NCBI RefSeq assembly: GCF_018977255.1
Contig: NW_024704742.1
Coordinates: 96,598,001 to 96,662,000 of the forward strand
Reading direction: 5' to 3'
Source of the DNA: Callorhinchus milii
Lineage: Eukaryota
Length of the DNA stretch: 64,000 bases
Under the pieces are notes generated by a model, which had not been told where the DNA came from, searched no databases, and was given only the letters and a program-made list of their open reading frames with translations. The position numbers and the translations under genes were made by a program. This document shows positions 4,376-59,859 of this stretch, piece by piece. Each line of letters opens with the position of its first letter. Positions within the stretch are counted from its first letter, which is position 1.

Positions 4376-4958
4376 GGTCTCTGAAATTTCACCCAATCTT
4401 AACCAGCAAAACTATTTTGTCTCAAAATGTAAGTTCACACAATATTATAGAAATTAATCCTTGCATTTGATATAGCGCTTTTCACGTCGGGAAGACGTCC
4501 CAAAGCACTTCACAGAACACACTGTAAAGTGAATTGACTGTATATTTGGGGGCGAACGCGGCAGCCAATTGCGCACAGCAATGTCCCACAAACAGTTGTA
4601 GATCGAAAATGACCAATTTATTATTATTTTTGGTTTTGGAGGGATTATTATTAGGCGTGTGGAGTAAGGAAACTTGGCCAAGGTTTCGCCCTCTGCCTGG
4701 AATTGAACTCAGGTCTCTCGCTTGCAAAGCGAGTGCTCTAACCACTGAGCTACAGGACTTAAGAACATTCTTAAATTGAATTAAATTAAATTGAATATAA
4801 ATATGGCAGCTAGTTTACTTTAAAGAACTATGGTGGTGGGAGGGGGGAAGGAAGCTTCCAAATTCAGATTACATTTAAGAATTTTTTCCACTGTTTGGCG
4901 TGACCTCAATTTTTTAGACAAAGTGGCTTTAACAGACTGAGAACAGATGGAATTTGGG
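4376..4958. mobile_element. Palindromic MITE (family also at 10.9, 16.2, 27.6, 35.6 kb), interrupted by a SINE
   Basis: Left arm CTGAAATTTCACCCAATCTTAACCAGCAAAACTATTTTGTCTCAAAA is an imperfect reverse complement of the right arm TTTTTTAGACAAAGTGGCTTTAACAGACTGAGAACAGATGGAATTT. Confidence 0.55.
4455..4759 (-). mobile_element. Young tRNA-Ala-derived SINE (short subfamily; recalls SINE2-1_CM of C. milii)
   Basis: A box TAGCTCAGTGG, TTTGCAA anticodon-like loop, B-box-like GAGTTCAATTCC, L2-like 3' tail; near-identical to six other copies. Confidence 0.95.
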
Positions 4959-9663: not shown

Positions 9664-9753
9664 TGACCCAACTGACCCAACTGTCCAGCGCTTTGGGACA
9701 TCCTCCCGACGTGAAAGGGGCTCTATAAATGGAATCTTGTTGTTGTTGTTGTT
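9664..9753 (+). mobile_element. Extremely 5'-truncated young L2 (terminal ~90 nt)
   Basis: Near-identical to 57293-57370, including the (TTG)n tail. Confidence 0.9.
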
Positions 9754-25799: not shown

Positions 25800-26380
25800 T
25801 CACAAGATCACATAGAAGTTTGCATGAAGAAGGCCCTTTGCTCCATTTGATTTCATTCTTCCCGAAAATACCCACCTTTCTGTCTTTCCACCACAGCAAG
25901 TTGTTTTTTTTCAAATGAGTGCAGCATCATAGTTTCATGAACTCTTTATTGATAACCTGTTCCAGTTACTAATAGCCCCCAGGGTAAAGAAATATTTCCT
26001 GGTATCTGTCATAAAATTGCCCTTTGCAATCCTAAACTCGGGTCCTCTTCTTCTGCTGTCTCAGTGCACTCTTTTGACATGGTGAATGATTAGTCAAACT
26101 AACATTCCCAGATCTCTTCCAGCTATAATAGTGTTTTTTTTGCTCAAAACTGAAAGAAGTTGGTCGTATGATCATAAAAAAAGGATAGATAAAAAAGACT
26201 CTTCAACCCATTTCATCTCCTCCTTGCAGAATATTCACCAGTGTTCTGGCTATCCCACTTCTAGTGATGCTATAGATTACCTTCTGTGTAAAGAATTATT
26301 TATTGGTGTCTGTCCTACATTTGCCCTTCACAACCTTTACCAATGACCTCCTGTCCTGTTGCTTTGGTGGCTTTTAAAAC
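25800..26380 (-). mobile_element. Two degenerate CR1 3' ends in tandem
   Basis: CACAAGATCACATAG..CCTTTGCTCCAT..TTCCAGTT..GTAAAGAAATATTTCCTG pattern present twice. Confidence 0.5.
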
Positions 26381-27904: not shown

Positions 27905-28211
27905 TAATAATAATAATAATAATCCTTGCATTTGATATAGCGCTTTTCACGTCGGGAGGACATCCCAAAGCGCTTCACAGAAAATACTGTAAAGTGAATT
28001 GACTGTATATTTGTGGGCGAACGCGGCAGCCAATTGCGCACAGCAATGTTGCACAAACAGTCGTAGATTGAAAATGACCAATTTATTATTGCTTTTGGTT
28101 TTGGAGGAATTATCATTAGGCGTGTGGAGTAAGGATTCGCCCTGCCTGGAATTGAACTCAGGTCTCTCACTTGCAAAGAGAGTGCTCTAACCACTGAGCT
28201 ACAGGACTCCA
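27905..28211 (-). mobile_element. Young SINE (short subfamily)
   Basis: Full head and tail with a small internal deletion; an older tail fragment follows at 28215-28300. Confidence 0.95.
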
Positions 28212-28482
28212 TCAAATCTTACATTTGATAGAGCACTTTTCACGTCGAGAGGAAGTGTCAAAGAGCATCACAGAATATACTGTAAAGTGGAGTGGCTGTG
28301 TGTTTCACGAGTGAAAGCATGGAGTAGGTGGAAGATTGGGTCTCTGGTATGTGGCTTAGGCTGAATGTGTCTCTAGAATTCTGCTCACACATTAATCTTC
28401 GTTTTGACTTTGCCTCAGTACCTTGGCATAAGACCGACATCTGAGTGGAGTTCCATATTTGCTATTTTCAAATTTATAATGT

Positions 28483-28687: not shown

Positions 28688-28950
28688 TACAAGATCACAA
28701 AATCATGGCTGAAGGAAACCCATCGGTTCATTTGATCTCATTATTTCACAAGATTCACTCTACTATTCTTCCATTACAGTATCAGGCAGTTTCTTAAATT
28801 ACTCCAGCATCTTGGCCTCAACCACCCTTCCTGGATATCCATTCCAGTTGTTAATTATGGTTTGTGTAAAGAAATACTTCCTGGCGTCTGCCTGAACTTG
28901 CCTTTTGCAACCCTGAATCTGCTTTCTTGTTCTGCTGTTTAATTGCCATT
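28688..28950 (-). mobile_element. CR1 3' end
   Basis: Translation ARKYFFTQTIINNWNGYPGRVVEA, the typical CR1 C-terminus. Confidence 0.8.
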
Positions 28951-29223: not shown

Positions 29224-29553
29224 GTGGAGTCCTGTAGCTCAGTGGTTGAGCACTCGCTTTGCAAGCTAGAGACCTGAGTTCAATTCCAGGCAGGGCGAAA
29301 CCTTGGGCAAGTTTCCTTACTCCACACGCCTAATAATAATCCCTCCAAAACCAAAAACAATAATAAATTGGTCATTTTCAATCCATGACTGTTTGTGGGA
29401 CATTGCTGTGCGCAATTGGCTGCCGCGTTCGCCCACAAATATACAGTCAATTCACTTTACAGTGTGTTCTGTGAAGCGCTTTGGGACGTCCTCCCGACGT
29501 GAAAAGCGCTATATCAAATGCAAGGATTATTATTATTATTATTATTATTATTA
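29224..29553 (+). mobile_element. Young SINE, full length
   Basis: GTGGAGTCCTGTAGCTCAGTGG...GGGACGTCCTCCCGACGTGAAAAGCGCT..(ATT)9. Confidence 0.97.
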
Positions 29554-29929
29554 TACATGGATCTGGGCACTTCTGCCAGGGAAAGTAGGTTGGACTTTCT
29601 CAATTGTATCTGTTTCAGATTTCTTTCTGCAATTAAATTGGTTTTCGAGTGGGTGTCTAGAGACAGACCGATTATGGGAAAGAGTGTATTGATCTTGTAG
29701 CTAAATGTTATCAATATTTTTAATTGAAAGTCTTTTAATTGTGACCAGCAGTTGCTTCAACGTTAATACTAATAAAATAGGAATATTGGCAAGAGCGGTG
29801 AAAAACGTGGATCTGTTCTGCAGATTCCTGAAACAATATATATTTTTTGAAGTGTTGGAGATAGTAGGATCTGATGGGCAATTCATTCTGAAAGAAAGAC
29901 GCCTTTAAGAAACATCGAAGCATGTCACT

Positions 29930-32787: not shown

Positions 32788-33283
32788 ACAACAACAACAA
32801 AATTACATTTATATAGCGCCTCTCACGTCGGGAGGACGTCCCAAGTTTATATCTCAAGTCGTGAGGATGTCCCAAGGTCCTTGACAATATTAGCTTCAAA
32901 TCTGAGCGGGGGGTGGGAGCTGTGAAGGGAGGGGAGGGGAAAAATAAGTAAAAAGATGGACTTTGTGGAGTCCTGTAGCTCAGTGGTTAGAGCACTCGCT
33001 TTGCAAGTGAGAGACCTGAGTTCAATTCCAGGCAGGGCGAAACTTTGGGCAAGTTTCCTTACTCCACACAGAGCCTAATAATAATCCCTCCAAAACCAAA
33101 AACAATAATAAATTGGTCATTTTCAATCTACGACTGTGCCGCGTTCGCCCACAAATATACAGTCAATTCACTTTACTGTGTGTTCTGTGAAGCGCTTTGG
33201 GACGTCCTCCCGATGTGAAAAGCGCTATATCAAATGCAAGGATTATTATTATTAAAGAGGTAGGTCTTGAGACAAACCTTGAA
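32788..33283 (-). mobile_element. L2 3' fragment interrupted by a SINE
   Basis: (ACA)n..GCGCCTCTCACGTCGGGAGGACGTCCC on the left; AAGAGGTAGGTCTTGAGACAAACCTTGAA resumes after the SINE. Confidence 0.7.
32965..33253 (+). mobile_element. Young SINE with internal deletion
   Basis: Full head and tail; lacks about 30 nt around TTTGTGGGACATTGCTG. Confidence 0.95.
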
Positions 33284-33752: not shown

Positions 33753-34077
33753 ATAATAATAATAATAATAATAATCCTTGCATTTGATATAGCGCTTTTC
33801 ACGTCGGGAGGACGTCCCAAAGCGCTTCACAGAATAGACTGTAAAGTGAATTGACTGTATATTTGTGGGCAAACGCGGCAGCCAATTGCGCACAGCAATG
33901 TCCCACAAACAGTCGTAGATTGAAAATGACCAATTTATTATTGTTTTTGTTTTGGAGGGATTATTATTAGGCGTGTGGAGTAAGGAAACTTGCCCAAGGT
34001 TTCGCCCTGACTGGAATTGAACTCAGGTCTCTCACTTGCAAAGCGAGTGCTCTAACCACTGAGCTACAGGACTCCAC
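33753..34077 (-). mobile_element. Young SINE, full length
   Basis: Near-exact reverse complement of 29224-29553. Confidence 0.97.
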
Positions 34078-35621
34078 ATATATAACTAACATTAGCAATG
34101 GTGGGCTGGGTCAAAAAGTAGCAGATTGACTTTAAAGGACCACATCTGTCAGGATAATTCTCTCATGAGACAATTTACCAGGTCAGCAAACGGAAGAAGT
34201 GCGGGATGATCACTCACCAAATGTTTCCAGTCAATGTGAAGCTGCTGTCAACATAGCTAATCAAATACCAGGTTGCATCTCGAGGGTATTCAAGTGTAAG
34301 TGAAAAGAAGTTATTCTAACCTTGTGTATATCACTGAATGAGACTAAGTTTGGAATATTGTGTTAAATTCTGTGTTGTGTTGCAATGTGTTAATTGATGC
34401 CTATTTGCAAATTGATACTGAGGTCAAGTTAGTGATCTTATGATATTTAATACATCAAAAAAAATTAACACATCAACTGGGCCTTGAGTGAAACTGGAGT
34501 CAAACCTTTCATACTGGTCATGTCCAAAAAGTCAGGCGTATGTGAGACTCCCAGCTCACGTACTGTTGCTTTGGACTGCCTGTTAGAGGAATATTAATTT
34601 AAGGATTTTTTTTGTTGATCGGATTTGGTCAGTCGGAAAAAGGGAACAATTTTAATCAGCTAAATGATCATTTCTAGTTTTCCTTAAAAAACACTTCTCA
34701 TGAACCAAATCGCCAATCTTTTCTGATACCACAAATTCATTATTTAATTCATTCATAGCTTATTTTGTGATAAATTAGTTACAAAGTGTATTAGAGAGGC
34801 AGATGTAGTGGGAAACTACTGTGGTCAAAGATGTAATATCACTCAAACCAAATGAAGGGTGTGTTAGTAGCTTCTTTATCAATCCAAACTCTCAAAATTC
34901 CACCACTCTGAACCACACTCCTTGTCCCACTCCCAGTGTCCTTTTGTACTTCCTGCCCTTTTTATTGGCCCTTTTGTTAATTGTCAATTTACTCATAAAG
35001 GAGTTTCCAACAAAAGAGGAGACTGCTCAATGGACCGATAATACCCCTTTAATCCAAATTTTCAAGTTTATTTTTTACTCGAGAGAGGATTTCCTTTTTG
35101 TGTGCAGTGCTGGAGAAATAAAAGTGGTTCAAATAGATTTGAATCCATTTGATCTGCACAATTAGGGCAGGAACTGTTTCAACAACAACAGCTTATATTG
35201 CGCCCTCCACACAGGTAGCTTCTCAGAGCACTTTCAGAGCATCTTATTACTGCTATAATACATAGGTTGGAAAAGTCTGTGCTTAAATCAACCATTTTCA
35301 ACGCAACTAAGCTTTGATAACATCTGAAACCATGTTAAAAATAGATTCCAGGTACTGCAGTGATCTGTGTCAGGGAGAGTCACTGAAGGGAGATCAGACA
35401 CATTCCCAAATAGGGAGGAAAAACAGATGAAGAGTCACACTAGGATTCTTTCAGTTACCGAGTTACACTGGCAGAGGCTTGGGAGAAGAATGCTCTCTTG
35501 GCTGGGAACTAATGTATGGCATAGTGAGGCCTAAAAGGGTAAGGGTAAGAAATACGTAAGAGGAAAACTTGTCAACGTAGCTTCCCCCCTATTGAAAGAC
35601 TATTCACCTCAACACATATTT

Positions 35622-38311: not shown

Positions 38312-38717
38312 GTGGAGTCCTGTAGCTCAGTGGTTAGACCACTCACTTTGCAAGTGAGAGACCTGAGTTCAATTCCAGGCAGGGCAAAATCTTGGGCAAG
38401 TTTCCTTACTCCACACGCCTAATAATAATCCCGCCAAAAAAAAAAACAATAATAAATTGGTCATTTTCAATCTACGACTGTTTGTGGGACATTGCTGTGC
38501 GCAATTGGCTGCCGCGTTCGCCCACAAATATACAGTCAATTCAATTTACAGTCTACTCTGTGAAGCGCTTTGGGACATCCTCCCGACGTGAAAAGCGCTA
38601 TATCAAAATGCAAGGATTATTATTATTATTATTATTATTATAATTGCTGTGAAGCGCTTTGGGACGTCCTCCCGACATGAAAAGCGCTATATCAAATGCA
38701 AGAATTATTATTATTAT
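38312..38717 (+). mobile_element. Young SINE, full length, with tandemly duplicated 3' tail
   Basis: Main copy 38312-38642; second tail CTGTGAAGCGCTTTGGGACGTCC..ATTATT at about 38647-38717. Confidence 0.96.
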
Positions 38718-41700: not shown

Positions 41701-41967
41701 GTCTCAGACACAGATCACTGATGCAGGTTTTTTTTTAAAGTGTTCTCAACCATATAGTTTAATCCAAGTTGTGGAATTTTTGAGCTCTTTTTTGTAGGTG
41801 ACAGAGAAATTCCCCAAACTTCAGTAAATACGCTCACCGAGGTTGCTAAATGTATCACTGATTTTCCTCCTCCCCCACGACCCCACATGAATTGATCCTT
41901 AAATCATATTGTTTTACAATTAGAGCTGGAAAAAATGAAAAGCAGCAAATTCTGGAGATCTTGAAGT

Positions 41968-42120
41968 AAAAGTAGAAAATGCTAAAAACACAGCAAGTCA
42001 AGCAGACAGTGAAAAGATAGATTAGTGTATCAAGACTGACAAAGGGGCACATGCGAAGCGTTAACCATTCTTTCACAAGTTGATTGACCTGCTGTACATT
42101 TGCAGCAATTTCTGCTTTTG
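41968..42120. mobile_element. Penelope-like inverted-LTR remnant
   Basis: Arms AAAAGTAGAAAATGCTAAAAACACAGCAAGTCAA / TTGACCTGCTGTACATTTGCAGCAATTTCTGCTTTT; homologous to 47215-47314. Confidence 0.65.
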
Positions 42121-42439
42121 TTCTATAATTAGCTTTTCCTCATTGCCTTTTATCCAGAAGACGTCACTATTTTATCACTGCAGTGACTTCCAAGGAAGCC
42201 TCATGGAAAATGCAATGAGAACCAAATTATAAGGATGTATTGAAATCACAGGCATATCAGCATTAAACGCAAAATCACAAAGTCACCTTTTCTCGTTGTA
42301 CGTGCAAATTATATAAACATGCACTGAAATTGCTTACATTTTCAGGAAATGAAAACTGAAGTTAGAAGGCAAGGAGGGCTTTAGACCATGTATTTTGTAA
42401 GATAACCAGGTGAGGTTACTTTACAAACTTGACTATCTT

Positions 42440-46960: not shown

Positions 46961-47077
46961 AACCTCTTTCTATATTTCTTTAAAATTTCAACATGCTTCT
47001 ATACGTACTATTTTTTTAGCCATACCGTGTAAGAGTACTAAGCACATTGGTCTGGTGGTAAAGGCACCAACCTAGTG

Positions 47078-47150
47078 CAACAACAACAAATGATATTTAT
47101 AAAGCAAGCACCTTTCATGTCGGGAGGATGTCCCAAGGCGCTGGACAGTC
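47078..47150 (-). mobile_element. L2 tail fragment
   Basis: (AAC)n..CCTTTCATGTCGGGAGGATGTCCCAAGGCGCTGGACAG. Confidence 0.8.
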
Positions 47151-47214
47151 AGGGATTTGCAGAGGGTAATTAACAATTGGAACAGGTTGCCAGGAAAAGT
47201 GGTTGATTTAAAAA

Positions 47215-47314
47215 ACAAAAACAGAAGTCACTGGGAACACTCGGCAGGTCAGGCAGCATCTATGGAGAAAGGAAACTGAGTCAACGTTTCGGGTCCACGA
47301 CCCTTCATCAGAAC
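47215..47314 (-). mobile_element. Penelope-like LTR fragment
   Basis: AAAACAGAAG..CTGGGAACACTCGGCAGGTCAGGCAGCATCTATGGAG..AACGTTTCGGGTC..GACCCTTCATCAG, typical of shark Penelope-derived repeats. Confidence 0.7.
47277..47314 (-). ncRNA. Minimal hammerhead-ribozyme-like motif
   Basis: Minus strand: GUU CUGAUGA A GGGUC-GUG-GACCC GAAAC GUU GAC. Confidence 0.55.
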
Positions 47315-47484
47315 ATACATTTAAAAAACAGCTTGATTCAATGATGGGAGGAAAGTAAGGTGGGTGTTCTGGAAGGATGAGATCGGATGGACCAAAGGGC
47401 TTTCTTCATCCAGATCAATATTGTGAACTTGTGCATAAAGAGGACATGTTTGGAGGAGCTGGTAATATTATTTGCTGATTTGTA

Positions 47485-47770
47485 TACTCCTTTAGATGAG
47501 ACATTAATCTCAGGCCCTGTCTGCTTGTTCAGGTTAAAAATCCCATGGCCTTATTCCAAAAAGACAAGGGAGTTTCTCCCAGTATCATGTCTAACAATCT
47601 CCCAAATAAAACTAGTCATTCACTTCATAGCTATTGTGACATTGTTGTGCACAAATTGATTGCCGTGAGTATTATACAGTCACTATAATTTACAGTAAAT
47701 CATGTGAAACTCTTTGAGACAACATCCTGATGTAAAAGTCGCTATATCAAGAGCAATAATTATTAGTATT
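47485..47770 (+). mobile_element. DeuSINE-like 3' part
   Basis: CCTTTAGATGAGACATTAA..CCCTGTCTGC..ATCCCATGGC. Confidence 0.75.
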
Positions 47771-49074: not shown

Positions 49075-49371
49075 AGAGTCTTGTAGTTTAGTGGTTAGAG
49101 CACCTGCCTCGTAACCGAGAGGCCTGGGTTTGATTCCTGGCAGGGCGAAAATTGGTCAAGTTTCCTTACTCCACACACCTGATAATAATCCCTCAAAAAA
49201 AATTGATCACTTCAATCCACAACTGTTTGTGGGACACTGCTGTGCGTAATTAGCTGCAGTGTTTCGCCCACAAATATACAGTCAATTCACTTTACAGTAT
49301 ATTCTGTGAAGTGCTTTGAGACATCTAGAAGATGTGAAAAGCACTATATCAAATGCAAGTATTATTATTAT
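49075..49371 (+). mobile_element. SINE with short-subfamily structure, diverged
   Basis: Head AGAGTCTTGTAGTTTAGTGGTTAGAGCAC; lacks the internal segment. Confidence 0.9.
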
Positions 49372-49570
49372 AGTTGTAATATTTCTTTACACAAAGAAAT
49401 ATGCCTAGATTTGGGTTACCAGATAGAGTGACTGAATTCATTTAAGAGTTCATTCTGTTATCTTCTGTGCGACCTTACACTATTTGGAGTTTGGGATTAA
49501 AATTACCAATTGCAAAGAAGATTATGCTCTTCACTGTATCAATTTTAATGGTGGACGGTGAGCCTGCCAC

Positions 49571-49940: not shown

Positions 49941-51187
49941 AATCCACCTTACAAGGATTAGCTTTCAAGACATTTAAAGACAACATTTTTTTTGGTTAGA
50001 CATGTCTGCCTGAAAATGATCCTGTTAAAACACTTAAAACATTGAAATAAAATTGTGGTGGATTCCTCATTCATATTGGGTGGCTTATCACAATGGTTTA
50101 ATCTGCCCTAAATTATTACTGAGTTTCTAACCTTATGAAAGTGCCTCCAAAGAGTTTACATTAGTTAGCAACCAGCCAAGATTTACTGTAATTTGGTTCA
50201 GGCCTCGCCATTCAACTATATCCACACACCAATCAAGATGACAGCTCCACTTCAAAACAGAACTGATACCCCCCCAAAAAATAGTGAGATGTCTGCAGTG
50301 TTCTCTTGAAAAATTACAAATGGTTCAGGTCCAAAAAAGAGTGCATTTGCTATTGTGCTATTTGCATGGTTTAAAAATGTACTCAAACATTGATAAGTGT
50401 ATGGAATAACTTAGCATGCAATATAATAGTTGCAACGCCAACCAGAGGATAGCGGTTTGATGAACTGCATGACTTATTTGCTCCTGCAACCTTTCCTATA
50501 CTTTTAGATAACTTTCAAGACAAAACTAAAATGAGTTTGCCTGGAAAGCCAGAAATAATAACAGAAATAGAAGGATAACAATATTTTGGATGTGATCCTT
50601 TTTTTGTTTTAGACTAAGTTTACTCCATTAGTTTGATCGTACCAACTTCACAATCTACCTTACAGTCACTGATGAAATATATTTTACTATTGAAATCAAT
50701 TCATCCTTGTAACCATCTGTATATTAGTACATTTAAAGGGCCTTCTTAATCTGAAATCTTAATCTGAAACTCTTTTATGATCTTGCATTGAGCAAATTTT
50801 TCATTTCATGCTCAGAATTGGACTGGCTATTATCTTGTGTGGGACCTAATACTACAGTATTTGGAATTATTCTGTCATAAGACCATCTATGGACATAGCT
50901 CTATGTTTGTGTGTTGCAAGCAAATAAAATATTTTTTTTTGAAGTATCATTTTCACAATCTTTACAAAGCAGCATTTGCACTCTTCACAAACAAAATTAG
51001 GGACAGTTTCATCTGTAGTGATCTCTTACTTCTTCTCATTGAGGAGAGAAGAACCAACTATTGTTATTTGCTCACAAAATACACAGTCACATCACTTTAT
51101 AGTAAATGCTGATCACTTTAAGACGTCTCGATGACGTGATAAGATCTAGATTTACAGTGTTTGCCCATTAATCTACCTGAATATAAC

Positions 51188-51510
51188 AATAATAATAATA
51201 ATCCTTGCATTTGATATAGCACTTTTCACGTCGGGAGGACGTCCCAAAGCGCTTCACAGAACACACTGTAAAGTGAATTGACTGTATATTTGTGGGCGAA
51301 CGCGGCAGCCAATTGCGCACAGCAATGTCCCACAAACAGTCGTAGATTGAAAATGACCAATTTATTATTGCTTTTGGTTTTGGAGGGATTATTATTAGGC
51401 TCTGTGTGGAGTAAGGAAACTTGCCCAAGGTTTCGCCCTCTGCCTGGAATTGAACTCAGGTCTCTCGCTTGCAAAGCGAGTGCTCTAACCACTGAGCTAC
51501 AGGACTCCAC
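51188..51510 (-). mobile_element. Young SINE, full length
   Basis: Near-identical to the other young copies. Confidence 0.97.
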
Positions 51511-52450
51511 AATGGCTTTCTGAAAAGAATAAACCACCTGAATCCCAAACTCTGATTAGGCCAGTTTGCTTGTCAGCTTGTCCTCTGCACAAACCCTGGC
51601 CAGGGATTGCCAGAAAAAAACTCAAGTAAAAATTAAAGTTTAAAATAATAAAAAGCAGACAATAAGTATACTTGGAGTTTTAGTATAAGTGCATGGTTGG
51701 GCAAGTGATGGAGAGAAAAAACGAATGAGTGAGTGAGGAGAGAGATAACCACTTTTCCTTACCTGCTGAATATAAAACTAACCAACAGAAACATCAGTGT
51801 TGAATTAAAGCAGTTAGTGTACAGCAAGAAGCCAAACATATACAGTTTGATCTATTTACCATTTTTCTAAATGTATACTATTAAGAATGTATGAAATCCT
51901 CCAAATTCTGTGTCTGTGCATATTGCATTTTGCATGCTAGACTTTGAAATACCTTTTCAATTGTATAGTCATCTCATCATAGAGAGCACAATTTGCTGAA
52001 ACATAAGTGAGTACCTAATGGATATCTAAAGAATACAAATTCACTAGCTTATAACAAGCAATATTTTTTCGTACACTTCAGTGCTTGAATAAACGTCTTG
52101 AAAATAAGTCATGAATATTATAAACCATATTACTATAAATAACAACTTAAGACAGATAACATTCAATCTTTAACATACCACGCTAAATTTAAACTCCTTC
52201 CACAATCCCCGCTAATGTTGCAAAATGTATGAGAAATAGTCATTTGGATCATTCTGGAGATCCAAAGTCAATCCTTTGAATTGGCAGCTTCCATGTTGCG
52301 GCTGTTCTGGTGAGCAAGGCAATCATCACCCAACTCAGCCGAGAACAAGTGCTTCATTTATTGCGGCAATTGATTCCTATCATGTACTTTTCCATGAAGA
52401 TTGGATTGGATTGGTTCCTGGCAAAATGGGACTGAGGGAGGGAGGGAGGT

Positions 52451-52957
52451 ACAACAACAACAACAAGATTTCATTTATAGAGCTCCTTTCACATCGGGAG
52501 GATGTCCCAAGGTGCTGGACAGTTGGGTCGGGACCGAAGCAGGGGAGAAATGGTCAGGGTGAGGGGAGGGAAGGGAGGGAGCGAGGAGGGGAGGGAAGGG
52601 AGGGAGCGAGGAGGGGGTAGAGAGTCGAGAGGGGAGCTGAAGGCACGGTTGAAGAGAAAGGTCTTGAGACCGGCCTTGAAGGAGGAAAGGGAGGAAGCAA
52701 TGTGAAGGCACTGGGGGATGGAGTTCCAGAGCCTAGGGGCTGAGAGGCTGAAGGCTCGGCCACCGATGGTAGGGTGGTTAGGGCGGGGGATGTGCAGCAG
52801 ACCAGACCCAGAGGAACGGAGGGTACGGGCAGGTAAGTAGGGGGATAGAAAGTCGGAGAGGTAAGAGGGAGCAAGGCCGTGAATGACTTTGTAGGTGAGG
52901 ATGAGGATCTTGAATTCGATCCTCTGGGGGATGGGGAGCCAGTGGAGGCGAGCGAGG
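52451..52957 (-). mobile_element. Young L2, 5'-truncated (~500 bp)
   Basis: Close reverse-complement match to 56895-57370, with (AAC)n tail. Confidence 0.95.
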
Positions 52958-54375: not shown

Positions 54376-55351
54376 TAAGCAATCCCGTTGAAAAAATACT
54401 GCATTTTAGACCCCACAATGTGATCCACCACTGAATTGATTTGGTTCTTTTAAGAACATAAACATATTCGCTTACACACACAGACACATTCATACACAGA
54501 AACTTTTAAGAGCCCCTCGTGTTTCTACAGAAACAGGATCAGCTATTCTCCACTTTCACAATGAGGTGACTATTAACTGTCAGAGAAACTGCACACCAGC
54601 AAGGTCTCCAGAAAGGACACTCCTACACTCTGCTCACAAATATAACACACAACATACTTTCTGTGTGTTGAAATGTGAGTACAGTTCATTGTGTGTGTGG
54701 CACTGATATTTTCCAGGCCTGAGAATGTGACAATTAACTGGAGTACAAACATAAATGATAACACAAACCACATACCTCCCTCTGCATCAATGCATCCTCC
54801 TCCTCATCTTTTCCCCTCCCCTCTATGGACCACCGTGGTTTAGCTATATTACCTCCATATGCCTTATTAGTACTGCAGTCAATTTCATATTATAAGTCAT
54901 TTTATAACACAAACCTAATAAAATCACTTTGACATGAGGTCCAGTCTGGATATAAATGGAAAGCATGTGTGTTTGAAAGTCTAACACATCAGAAATATTT
55001 ATTTATCCATCACAGAGCACAACAGCGATTTATATTTAAAAACATAAGAAGTTAAACTTTTTTCAATATACGCTCAGCCTGCTTAGTTTTCTTTGTTAAA
55101 ACAAAACTATACAGGACAGTATCTACAAAGCTGTAGTCAGGGCAGCATTTGATAGAGGGCGGACTTTCAAGGGTCAACTAGCAGCATCAAAAGCTGTACA
55201 TTCTACCCAATTAGTGGAAATAGGCTTTTTATTCTAATAGTGCTATCACTTAGTGGCCCCTCTCAGCATATTACACCAGATCACTTCAGATATGCATTTG
55301 CATATTCAGTGAACTATTATTGGAAAATTAAGTTTCCTAATTGCTATATTT

Positions 55352-57270
55352 TGGCTGGACCTCCTCAAAATTTACCGCTCCACTCTAGCCTCGGCCAAGT
55401 CGTCCTTCTACTCCAGGATAATCCTGGAGGCGAAGAACAACCCCAGGCTACTGTTTTCCACCACAACCCGACTCCTCCGTCCCCCCGCCACCCCGCGCAG
55501 GTCATCTCCTCCAACCTTCACTGCGAGGAGATGCTGGATTTCCTTGAATCCAAGATCAAGGGAATTCGCTCCGCGGTCACTTCCCCTCCAACATCCACCA
55601 AACCCCCACCCCCTCATTCCTACACTCCGACTGCTACCCATCCTCCCCTACTCACTTTTGTACCCGTTTCCCCACCCTCTGTCACCAAACTCATCCTATC
55701 CCTGAAACCAACCACCTGCTCCCTTGACCCCATCCCCACTCCACTCCTTATCTCCCAGCTCCACTTTCTTGCCCCACATATCACCGACATCGTCAACCTG
55801 TCCCTCTCCTCTGGCTCTGTCCCCATTCCCTTAAAAACTGCCACCATCACGCCCACCCTGAAAAAACCCTCCCTTGATGCGTCGCAGCTATCAAGCTACC
55901 GGCCCATCTCCAACCTCCCCTTTCTCTCCAAGGTCCTGGAAAGAGTTGTCGCCTCCCAACTGCGCTCTTTCCTTTCCACCCATTCACTCTTCGAACCCCT
56001 TCAGTCAGGTTTCCGTGCTGCCCATAGCACAGAAACTGCCCTGGTCAAGGTCACCAATGATATCCTGACCATCTGTGACCAGGGCTCCCTCTGCCTCCTC
56101 GTCCTCCTCGACCTATCGGCAGCATTCGATACGGTCGACCACGCTATCCTACTCCACCGCTTGTCCTCCCACCTCAACCTTCAAGGCACTGTCCTTGAGT
56201 GGTTTAGGTCGTACCTTTCTCACCGTCTTCACTTTGTCTCACAAATGGCTTCTCCTCCACCCCCCGCACTGTCTCATGTGGTGTCCCTCAGGGCTCTGTC
56301 CTCGGTCCCCTCCTCTTCACCCTCTATATGCTCCCCCTGGTGACATCATCCGCAGACATGGAGTTAACTTCCACATGTATGCGGATGACACCCAACTCTA
56401 CCTTTCCTCCTCTACTCTCAACTCCACGACCACCGATGTCCTGACAGCCTGCCTGTCCGACATCGAGTCCTGGACGAGAGACAACTTTCTTCAGCTCAAC
56501 GTGCGAAAAACCGAGGCCCTCCTGATTGGCTCACGTCAGCGCCTCCGCACCTCAGGCGCTGACACCATCAGCATCCAAGGCTGCACTCTCCACCTCTCAA
56601 AGCCAGTCAGGAACCTCGGCGTTTTGTTCGACCCTGAGCTGTCCTTTCTCCCTCACATCCGCACCACAACTGGCACCGCCTTCCATCACCTCCGGAACAT
56701 CGCCAGACTACGGCACTACCTCACCCCTCACGCTGCTGAAACTCTGGTCCACGCCTTTATCACCTCAAGGCTGGACTATGGGAACTCTCTCCTCGCCGGC
56801 CTTCCCGGCACCTCCCTCCACAAGCTGCAGGTCATTCAGAACTCTGCAGCTCATGTACTGTCCCGCACCAGGCTTCGGACCACATCACTCCCACCCTCGC
56901 TCGCCTCCACTGGCTCCCCATCCCCCAGAGGATTGATTTCAAGATCCTCATCCTCACCTATAAGGCCATTCACGGCCTTGCTCCCTCCTACCTCTCTGAC
57001 CTACTATCCCCCTACCTACCTGCCCGTACCCTCCGTTCCTCCGGCTCCGGTCTGCTCCACATCCCCCGCCCCAACCGCCCTACCATCGGTGGTCGGGCCT
57101 TCAGCCTCTCAGCCCCAGGCTCTGGAACTCCATTCCCCAGTGCCTTCGCCGCCTCCTCCCTTTCCTCCTTCAAGGCCGGTCTCAAGGCCTTTCTCTTTGA
57201 CCGTGCCTTCAGCTCCCCTCTCGACTCTCTTCCCCCTCCTCGCTCCCTCCCTTCCCTCCCCTCACCCTGA
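55352..57270 (+). pseudogene. L2 ORF2 reverse transcriptase, truncated and frameshifted (endonuclease domain absent)
   Basis: Continuous RT homology across three frames, with shifts near 55491, 56240, 56340, 56878, 57114 and 57150. Confidence 0.9.
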
Positions 57271-57370
57271 CCATTTCCCCCTGCTCGGGTCCTGACCCAA
57301 CTGTGCAGCGCCTTGGGACGTCCTCCCGACGTGAAAGGCGCTTTATAAATGGAATCTTGTTGTTGTTGTT
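55352..57370 (+). mobile_element. L2-clade LINE, 5'-truncated, young
   Basis: ORF2 motifs [47 protein letters not shown] (56378-56389), SRLDYGN, LHWLP; 3' stem-loop and (TTG)n tail. Confidence 0.97.
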
Positions 57371-57692: not shown

Positions 57693-59859
57693 TAACCCAA
57701 GTCTATTTTTTCCCCTTTAAAATTTTCTCCCATTCCTTTCTCCTTTCCTGAAAGCATTTTGACTCATTTTTCCTTCTACTGGGATATGGTTTGACAGGTA
57801 CCAGTTATCCCTCCAGTGACAATTATTTAGGTGTGAACTTTGACAGTGACTTTCATCGAACTGAGTTGGGGCATGAGAACCGCATCCTGATACAATACTC
57901 AACTGGGACTCATGCACATACACCTACCACAAGTAGTTTGTGGAAATAGTATAATAATAATCCTGCATTTGGTAAAGCACCTTATTAGTGACTGTGTATT
58001 TCTAGGCAAATTTGTGCCCATCAATGCCCCACAAAACATTATTGGATACCAATAAACTGGAGCAGGAACCTGGCTGATTTTCTCCTCACTAACCCAAAGG
58101 CGCCAAGGCCAATTCAAATGTCCTAACTGCTCTGAATAGTGTCATTTTTTATTCCAATGTTGCTTTGGCTTTTAGAAATCACAATCGCAATTGAATGTTT
58201 CGAATAGGAATAGGGTTGACTAAGCCCAAAATCTGACTTGATATATTTGGGAAATCAGTGAAAGTTTAAATCGAGAAAAATTGATTCCCACTGCATACCA
58301 CCCAGTTTCTGTAAAGCACTCTGAGATGTTACCCTATGTGAGCGGTACAATTCCATAAGAATAATCCCTACATTTGATATAGTACCTTAAACGTCGGGTT
58401 GACATCGCAAAGGGATTCACAGGTTATAACGTTAAGTGTTCCAAAACTTTACCCACATGAAAGGCGCTATATTTATGCAAGCCGTTGTTGTTACTTAAAA
58501 GTGTTTTGTGGGTGAATGCCCACATAAATGCAAATTGTTATTATTGTAAACATTGTTTTTTGTTGTAGTTTTTTATTGTTTTGAACTACAAAATTGTTGC
58601 ACGATGTATCATTAATGAAGTGCATACGCAGCGTGCAGCAATTGACATGCATGCAACCTTACGATCCTAAAATCGGCCCTTTTTGTAGTCAAAAAGATTG
58701 CTAAAATCCATTAAAGAAGCACAAATAAGATTCAAAAATTAAGTTGAAAAATTTGAAAAGCAGCAACACTAGTTATGAAACATTGGATTTTCACCCGTAT
58801 TGTTTACTGGTGTTCTGCATTTCAAGCATCTGCAAGAAAAAGAAAAACAATAACAATATCGTGCTATAGATTCCAAAAGGTGTGAATGTGAAGACAATTT
58901 AAAAGGAAGGCCAAGGATAATTGTGGATTAAGTTACTGAACATGCTCCATTGGCAGCGTGACCCCGTCAACCAAAAGCAAGAATGTAACGAATGTGTTTG
59001 AAAGGTTAGGTTGTAAGTGTATTAATATCTTCAAATAAAACATCAATCCTCGTTTTTTTTTTAAAAAAGTATTCCTATTTATTTCAGGACTATTTATAAA
59101 ATCTGGCTGATGACTTTTATGTAGATGAAGCCATGTCCGTGGTACGAGGCAAACGGTTTTGCTGTGGCACATTTCTGGACAGCACAAGTTCTCTTAGGTC
59201 AGACAAGTTGTCATTGCTACGGTTCGTTGCTAGGTCACAATTAGCCCCATATGTTGCCATATTCAATGGATATGATTCAACAGTTTGCCCTGTCACTTTG
59301 ATAGCATAAAGCTGTACAGTGTTCAAAGAGTCAGACATCTCATTTGAATATCCAATTTGTCTCTGTGGAGTAATATAGTTATATCTCATTCAGGCAGCAC
59401 TAGATTTAGCTCTGTACTGCCCTCTTCAGTCAGCAATTGGAAGATCCTGGCTGTGATGTTCAGCTTTCCCTCAGTACAGCATCCCAGCACTAATTAAAAT
59501 GGATGGAACTTTGCTTTCAGCCCAGGGATCTCGCACTAATGAATTTGTGGAAAACAAAAGGTAGAATGCAGAGGTGCCATCAAGCTGGCCTGCGTTTATT
59601 ATAAGTATTTCTATGAATCTAATTGTAACTCATAACTGCTCATTTCCTATCATTCTCCATAAAGCATTAATCACTGTAAACGTAAAATGTTTCTGAATAG
59701 ATTTTGATTTTCCTTTTGATATTTCTTTCAAAAATTAGTAAATTGTGACTAGTTGCTCTTCAAAAAATGATGGATGTAACTTATAATAATACGAACTCGT
59801 ATTTGATAATAACAACAACATGGATTTATATAGCGTCCTTCACACAGGATAGATTCTCA

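Follow-up and report, generated by a model that had tools for sequence, protein, structure and literature searches.

A minimal hammerhead motif at the end of an abundant, probably Penelope-like repeat in Callorhinchus milii

The window analysed here, a 64-kb stretch (64,000 nucleotides) of Callorhinchus milii DNA, contains a minimal type I hammerhead motif of 35 bases on the minus strand (47280-47314), which forms the first third of a 101-base insert (47218-47318, minus strand). We judge it likely, at a probability of about 0.85, that the insert is a solo, heavily 5′-truncated retro-copy of the 3′ end of a pseudo-LTR (pLTR) from an endonuclease-bearing Penelope-like element (PLE). Minimal hammerheads (min-HHRs) in the pLTRs of metazoan PLEs were reported by Cervera and De la Pena (2014, PMC4209133), where they are described as mostly solo copies present in thousands per genome. 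The class has been known since 2014, and the insert is a further member.

Read along the minus strand, the motif opens with the 5′ arm of stem I (GUU, 47314-47312) and the first core box, CUGAUGA (47311-47305), followed by an extra A after A9 (47304), the 5′ arm of stem II (GGGUC, 47303-47299; five base pairs including G10.1-C11.1) and a three-base loop, GUG. The 3′ arm of stem II (GACCC, 47295-47291) leads into the second core box, GAAA (47290-47287), then into C15.2 (47286), G16.2 (47285), U16.1 (47284) and U17 (47283), and finally into the 3′ arm of stem I (GAC, 47282-47280). The boxes CUGANGA and GAAA are present in type I order with a UH cut site, here UU, and the cut is predicted between 47283 and 47282. 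Stem III is absent; in its place AACGUU (47288-47283), a true palindrome, holds the C-G of positions 15.2 and 16.2. Stem I consists of three pairs, a U.G wobble, a U-A and a G-C. The original prediction of a minimal hammerhead core with this palindrome, a 5-bp stem II and a 3-bp stem I was borne out by the minus-strand sequence, which fits the published consensus throughout; of the span it gave (47277-47314), the end stands and the start lies three bases beyond that of the motif.

How readily such a motif arises by chance depends on how much of it is counted. Taken by themselves, the two boxes are not significant (two matches in the window against 1.13 expected, with at least two in 30 of 100 shuffles), the folding energy of the stretch is ordinary compared with shuffles (z -0.03), and the Rfam search that had been proposed as a check found no hammerhead covariance model matching the motif at E≤10. 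A full descriptor comprising the boxes, stem II, the palindromic 15.2/16.2 pair, UH and stem I, which had also been proposed, gave a single match in the 64-kb window and none in 600 dinucleotide shuffles, even at its loosest setting (stem II of at least 3 bp, stem I of at least 2 bp); this descriptor was built post hoc, with the motif already known, and was modelled on the published min-HHR consensus. The motif moreover follows that consensus at places outside the descriptor (the A after the first box, G10.1-C11.1 and a U-rich 5′ flank), and the repeat whose end it occupies shows PLE anatomy. The hammerhead motif is thus confirmed as a real feature whose full descriptor exceeds chance, and a fortuitous likeness within an unrelated repeat is barely credible, even with the boxes at chance level, an ordinary energy and no Rfam match in its favour.

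Published PLE hammerheads were represented by the >80% consensus and 56 example rows in supplementary Fig. S3 of PMC4209133. The motif agrees with this consensus at every position, sharing CUGANGA-H, a stem II with G10.1-C11.1, GAAA, the palindromic 15.2/16.2 pair, UH, a short stem I and the lack of stem III. Its 5-bp stem II and its 3-bp stem I, one pair of which is a wobble, lie within the ranges of the class (about 4-8 bp and 2-6 bp, respectively). By manual count, stem I has at most 3 bp in 29/56 of the rows, U occupies position 17 (giving GUU) in 24/56, and exactly C-G-U-U follows GAAA in 15/56; a short stem I or GUU is therefore no mark of decay. Reading GUU as a decayed GUC is unneeded given the 24 rows with U17, and the eight A>G places of sequencing run X14, all of them listed, do not include 47283. 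The motif differs from PLE min-HHRs in its three-base loop II and in the U.G wobble that closes stem I beside the cut site, and the wobble is its one odd feature. None of the 56 published rows comes from a cartilaginous fish, so the comparison is with the class and not directly with sequences of related species.

The limits of the insert are given by its target site. Identical 12-base, AT-rich duplications beginning with ATT lie on either side (47206-47217 and 47319-47330, plus strand, 12/12 identical); the duplicated sequence is of low complexity, and a comparable bracketing repeat occurs at 11/9037 window positions. The insert splits an older host repeat (47150-47433, plus strand), which we take to be the 3′ end of a CR1-type LINE and whose relatives at about 25800-26000 and 28690-28890 are uninterrupted. 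Since the duplication is perfect and both flanks come from one older repeat, the insert can be set at 47218-47318, 101 bases. Sequencing contigs of other host-repeat copies have joints that skip 160-172 bases across the insert. Compared with its relative at 28.8 kb, the host copy is short of about 19 bases, so the insertion site is not perfectly clean. The match to the repeat family spans 47213-47314; accordingly, four insert bases at the 5′ end (47315-47318) fall outside it, and five bases of the left duplication are also family sequence. In organism B, the match of one orthologue-like contig breaks off at 47325, inside the right duplication, which would fit an insert limited to certain lineages, but an empty site is not proven, the left flank (47000-47062) having no coverage there. 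To the right of the insert, the unique stretch 47325-47599 is covered by contigs from organisms B and C, both of which have a 12-base deletion at 47473 as well as changes at 47440 and 47453. A short repeat tail lies just before the host repeat (47078-47149); with two others (9680-9748 and 52455-52523), it matches the 3′ end of the LINE remnant at 55156-57370, like a LINE-SINE pair.

The repeat family was followed in contigs of four of 24 sequencing runs (X1, X10, X12 and X14), aligned to 47000-47600 at a likeness cut-off of 80%. The family match is present in organisms A, B and C, and the family is very abundant in all three. In the holder run, summed depth is about 10 on the unique flank and 681,120 at 47252-47272, and over the insert it is 10^4-10^5 times that of the unique flank; neither figure is a copy number. 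Loose contig ends before 47213 share one consensus (574, 463 and 85 contigs in X10, X12 and X14), which appears to be an optional 3′ tail, shown over 30 letters, that is missing from the copy at 47218-47318. Behind 47314, loose ends are similarly frequent (520, 449 and 86 contigs in these runs) and agree poorly (0.36-0.42), so they give no evident sign of a PLE body shared upstream. Contigs also join 47275 to 47314 on the opposite strand (3, 9, 8 and 1 contigs, 21 over all four runs), an arrangement that reads as head-to-head inverted copies; other joints lie at 47255, 47269 and 47270.

Among 40 of the 70 variant rows, seven fall in 47213-47277, whereas 47278-47314 has none; the contigs behind these counts were filtered by likeness and had end mismatches clipped, and the counts do not speak to preferential conservation of the core. 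Among the rows listed for X1, the run of the organism itself, the window carries the minority letter only at 47243 and 47276, both outside the ribozyme, and the five core adenines show no variant at 8% or above in X1, X10 and X12, since the rows shown include every T>C and T>A place counted for these runs. This suggests that the copy is young, with the family's usual core. In all three runs with loose ends behind 47314, the first consensus letter there would give stem I a fourth pair, and the truncation has thus probably removed one stem I pair. The weak upstream consensus would also put CAG at the 5′ edge of stem I (47314-47312, minus strand). [quoted passage not shown]

Insertions of endonuclease-bearing PLEs have been described as truncated pLTRs with an inverted partner, an optional tail of 30-40 bases and a short target-site duplication (PMC3846280, PMC8557442, PMC8969392), with duplications of 8-10 bases, a head-to-head inverted pLTR and a tail of about 31 bases in the accounts of PMC3846280 and PMC8557442. 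For Poseidon of Anolis, PMC11167929 reports that the element protein nicks at ATT, that two internal starts of reverse transcription define the tail and that uncut RNA is used. The insert resembles the insertion units of Penelope/Poseidon, Neptune and Nematis in its short duplication, AT-rich site, 5′ truncation and derivation from uncut RNA, the last because it spans its own cut site. Its family, like these units, has a tail in some copies and head-to-head inversions in some, whereas the copy at 47218-47318 itself has neither tail nor inverted partner. Penelope elements have also been reported in shark genomes (PMC8455134, PMC4350176). From this anatomy we infer both the PLE parentage and the priming route. 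The element protein would have nicked an AT-rich site within the older repeat, and reverse transcription may have been primed at the inner of the starts within the element RNA, which yields no tail and where five bases are common to target and family. About 100 bases would then have been copied, through the still-uncut ribozyme, before synthesis stopped, and repair would have left the 12-base duplication. Within the parent element, cleavage after GUU would require either a dimer, in which A-C-G-U of both copies forms stem III, or the aid of protein.

The PLE origin that had been proposed for the motif is thus favoured by the insertion anatomy (target-site duplication, optional tail and inversions), but no PLE open reading frame could be tied to the family. 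A Pfam scan of 170 window frames (49 of the 75 with at least 85 residues and 121 of the 132 shorter ones) found no PLE reverse transcriptase or GIY-YIG frame, and a protein search with the 41-residue open frame across the insert gave no candidate, which is weak evidence. Pattern scans of viral contigs, metagenomes and prokaryote genomes found no family locus; the ten loci returned (viral 0 + 6, metagenome 0 + 2, prokaryote 2) matched only the 18-23-base pattern and were set aside as chance. Nor was a host gene identified in the same 170 frames: Pfam matches were limited to LINE reverse transcriptase pieces at 55-57 kb and weak matches to alpha-2-macroglobulin (A2M) and T2SSM (the latter at E 0.0093). 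The A2M match comes from a 49-residue frame at 59348-59494 (plus strand; E 0.0025 among 121 queries); it has no support from solved structures, in which the best PDB thioester protein scores E 1.1, and the frame is either a chance match or a worn exon. The LINE pieces belong to a remnant at 55156-57370 (plus strand) with two RVT_1 matches in different frames (E 2.5e-15 and 9.1e-06). Two LINE 3′ ends of about 500 bases, 52453-52957 and 56895-57370, are 87% alike and lie 4 kb apart in opposite orientation. The window also holds a young SINE family of about 320 bases, with copies 72-97% alike (4455-4759, 27905-28214, 29224-29554, 32963-33254, 33753-34078, 38312-38644, 49076-49383 and 51180-51513) and a tRNA-like head (Rfam tRNA, 33.3 bits, 49077-49148).

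About 5 kb from the insert lies an old relative of the family in the form of a fold-back (41924-42117, located with nhmmer), in which an inverted arm bearing the tail (about 41924-42025, minus strand) stands head-to-head with a forward arm whose ribozyme core has decayed (about 42033-42117, plus strand). It is bracketed by a 15-base direct repeat (41909-41923 and 42118-42132, plus strand, 13/15 alike). The nhmmer match to the family is weak (42036-42122, E 0.014). When the forward arm was compared with the young copy, none of 1978 random window stretches scored as high, and none of 1986 did so for the two arms compared with each other; for the inverted arm and the young copy, 37 of 1985 did. 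The tail is one-sided, on the inverted arm, where 18 of 24 letters, counted by eye, match the X14 tail consensus. As its core is decayed, the fold-back offers no dimer partner to the hammerhead at 47280-47314.

The many contigs that end at 47314 with unlike flanks could instead mean that the insert is complete: a defined non-autonomous mini-element, either a SINE- or MITE-like PLE derivative or a non-LTR retrozyme monomer, with its start at stem I of the ribozyme and a PLE protein copying it in trans, and present here at full length. One and the same inverted joint is seen in all three organisms, and non-LTR retrozymes are described as derivatives of PLE pLTRs and as present in the one chondrichthyan sampled (10.64898/2026.07.22.740005). 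As set out in that source and in PMC7229834, they are likewise non-coding, carry a type I hammerhead and are akin to PLE pLTRs, but they form tandem arrays with typically canonical hammerheads, whereas the present copy is single and dispersed, has a minimal core and is flanked by a target-site duplication. No tandem copy lies in the window, whose 64 kb hold one descriptor match and not an array with a hammerhead in each unit, and the ribozyme is minimal and not of the canonical retrozyme type (PMC7229834). The pile-up at 47314 is itself partly built in, since any longer copy necessarily gives a loose end there; the loose letters retain a weak shared consensus, and depth declines towards the 5′ side, as truncation would give. 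We therefore regard a full-length mini-element as unlikely, and prefer a truncated pLTR copy.

It is also conceivable that the ribozyme itself sets the ends of the family and that the inverted arms are cDNA of the 3′ cleavage product, and hence a record of cleavage in vivo. Forward arms would then begin at the 5′ edge of stem I, and the inverted arms of fold-back copies just 3′ of the cut site; the recurrent joint 47275/47314 lies seven bases from the predicted cut, and the layout of the old copy at 42 kb is similar. Against this, depth is maintained across the cut site (328,058 at 47277 against a mean of 314,408 over 47273-47293 in X1; 3.10 against 3.35 million in X10), there is no listed pile-up of ends at that place, and other joints occur, at 47255, 47269 and 47270 as noted above. 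The undiminished depth at 47277 rules out the cut site as the start of most copies; together with the lack of a listed pile-up, it indicates that most copies extend across the cut and derive from RNA that was still uncut. Ends set by the ribozyme are consequently very doubtful.

A different proposal, that the copy is a working regulatory ribozyme cutting a host transcript, alone or in trans with family transcripts, appears highly improbable. Its core is intact and equals the family's majority letters among the rows listed, and family contigs are plentiful in X14, a run guessed to be RNA; the unique flanks are uncovered in that run, which has no bearing on expression. Opposing it, no host exon was identified among the 170 window frames scanned, the hammerhead fold is predicted to be lost in the natural flanks, the helix available between molecules has only four bases (-1.7 kcal/mol), and the organism B contig stops at 47325 in the manner described. 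Folding predictions, which leave out tertiary contacts and proteins, place the hammerhead fold at -6.6 kcal/mol and a misfold at -8.0 kcal/mol. The predicted pairing probability of stem I is 0.12-0.16 for the motif alone, below 0.02 with 20 flanking bases and 0 with at least 50, and two copies folded together are predicted to prefer a non-catalytic duplex (-22.7 kcal/mol). The descriptor scan found no intact dimer partner in the 64-kb window.

Low activity appears to be general in this class. According to PMC4209133, a min-HHR monomer was uncut and dimers were weakly cleaved, and the review PMC6765202 credits dimer cleavage to Lunse et al. Eight of nine Xenopus retrozyme dimers are reported without cleavage (bioRxiv 10.64898/2026.07.22.740005), and for the Anolis PLE hammerhead PMC11167929 describes cleavage only with protein. 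Given the absence of an intact partner in the window, the predicted misfolding in the flanks and this generally low activity, the lone copy would most likely never cut. The earlier description of an inactive relic with a truncated stem I is thus probably right about inactivity but not about its cause: the core is not decayed, and truncation likely cost a single pair.

We found no paper describing this particular family, which repeat databases probably hold, and the motif sequence was not found in paper texts or in the supplement of PMC8557442; the available passages of PMC6155905 and PMC7229834 name no shark family. As one among very many dispersed retroelement ends, the single locus matters little. 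The purpose of PLE hammerheads is termed unclear in PMC8557442, and cleavage was unnecessary for insertion in vitro in the experiments of PMC11167929. Were the ends of the family after all set by the ribozyme, PLE hammerheads would have a role in building the inverted insertion. A family this large and fairly uniform could allow statistics on where copies start relative to the cut site and on selection acting on the core.
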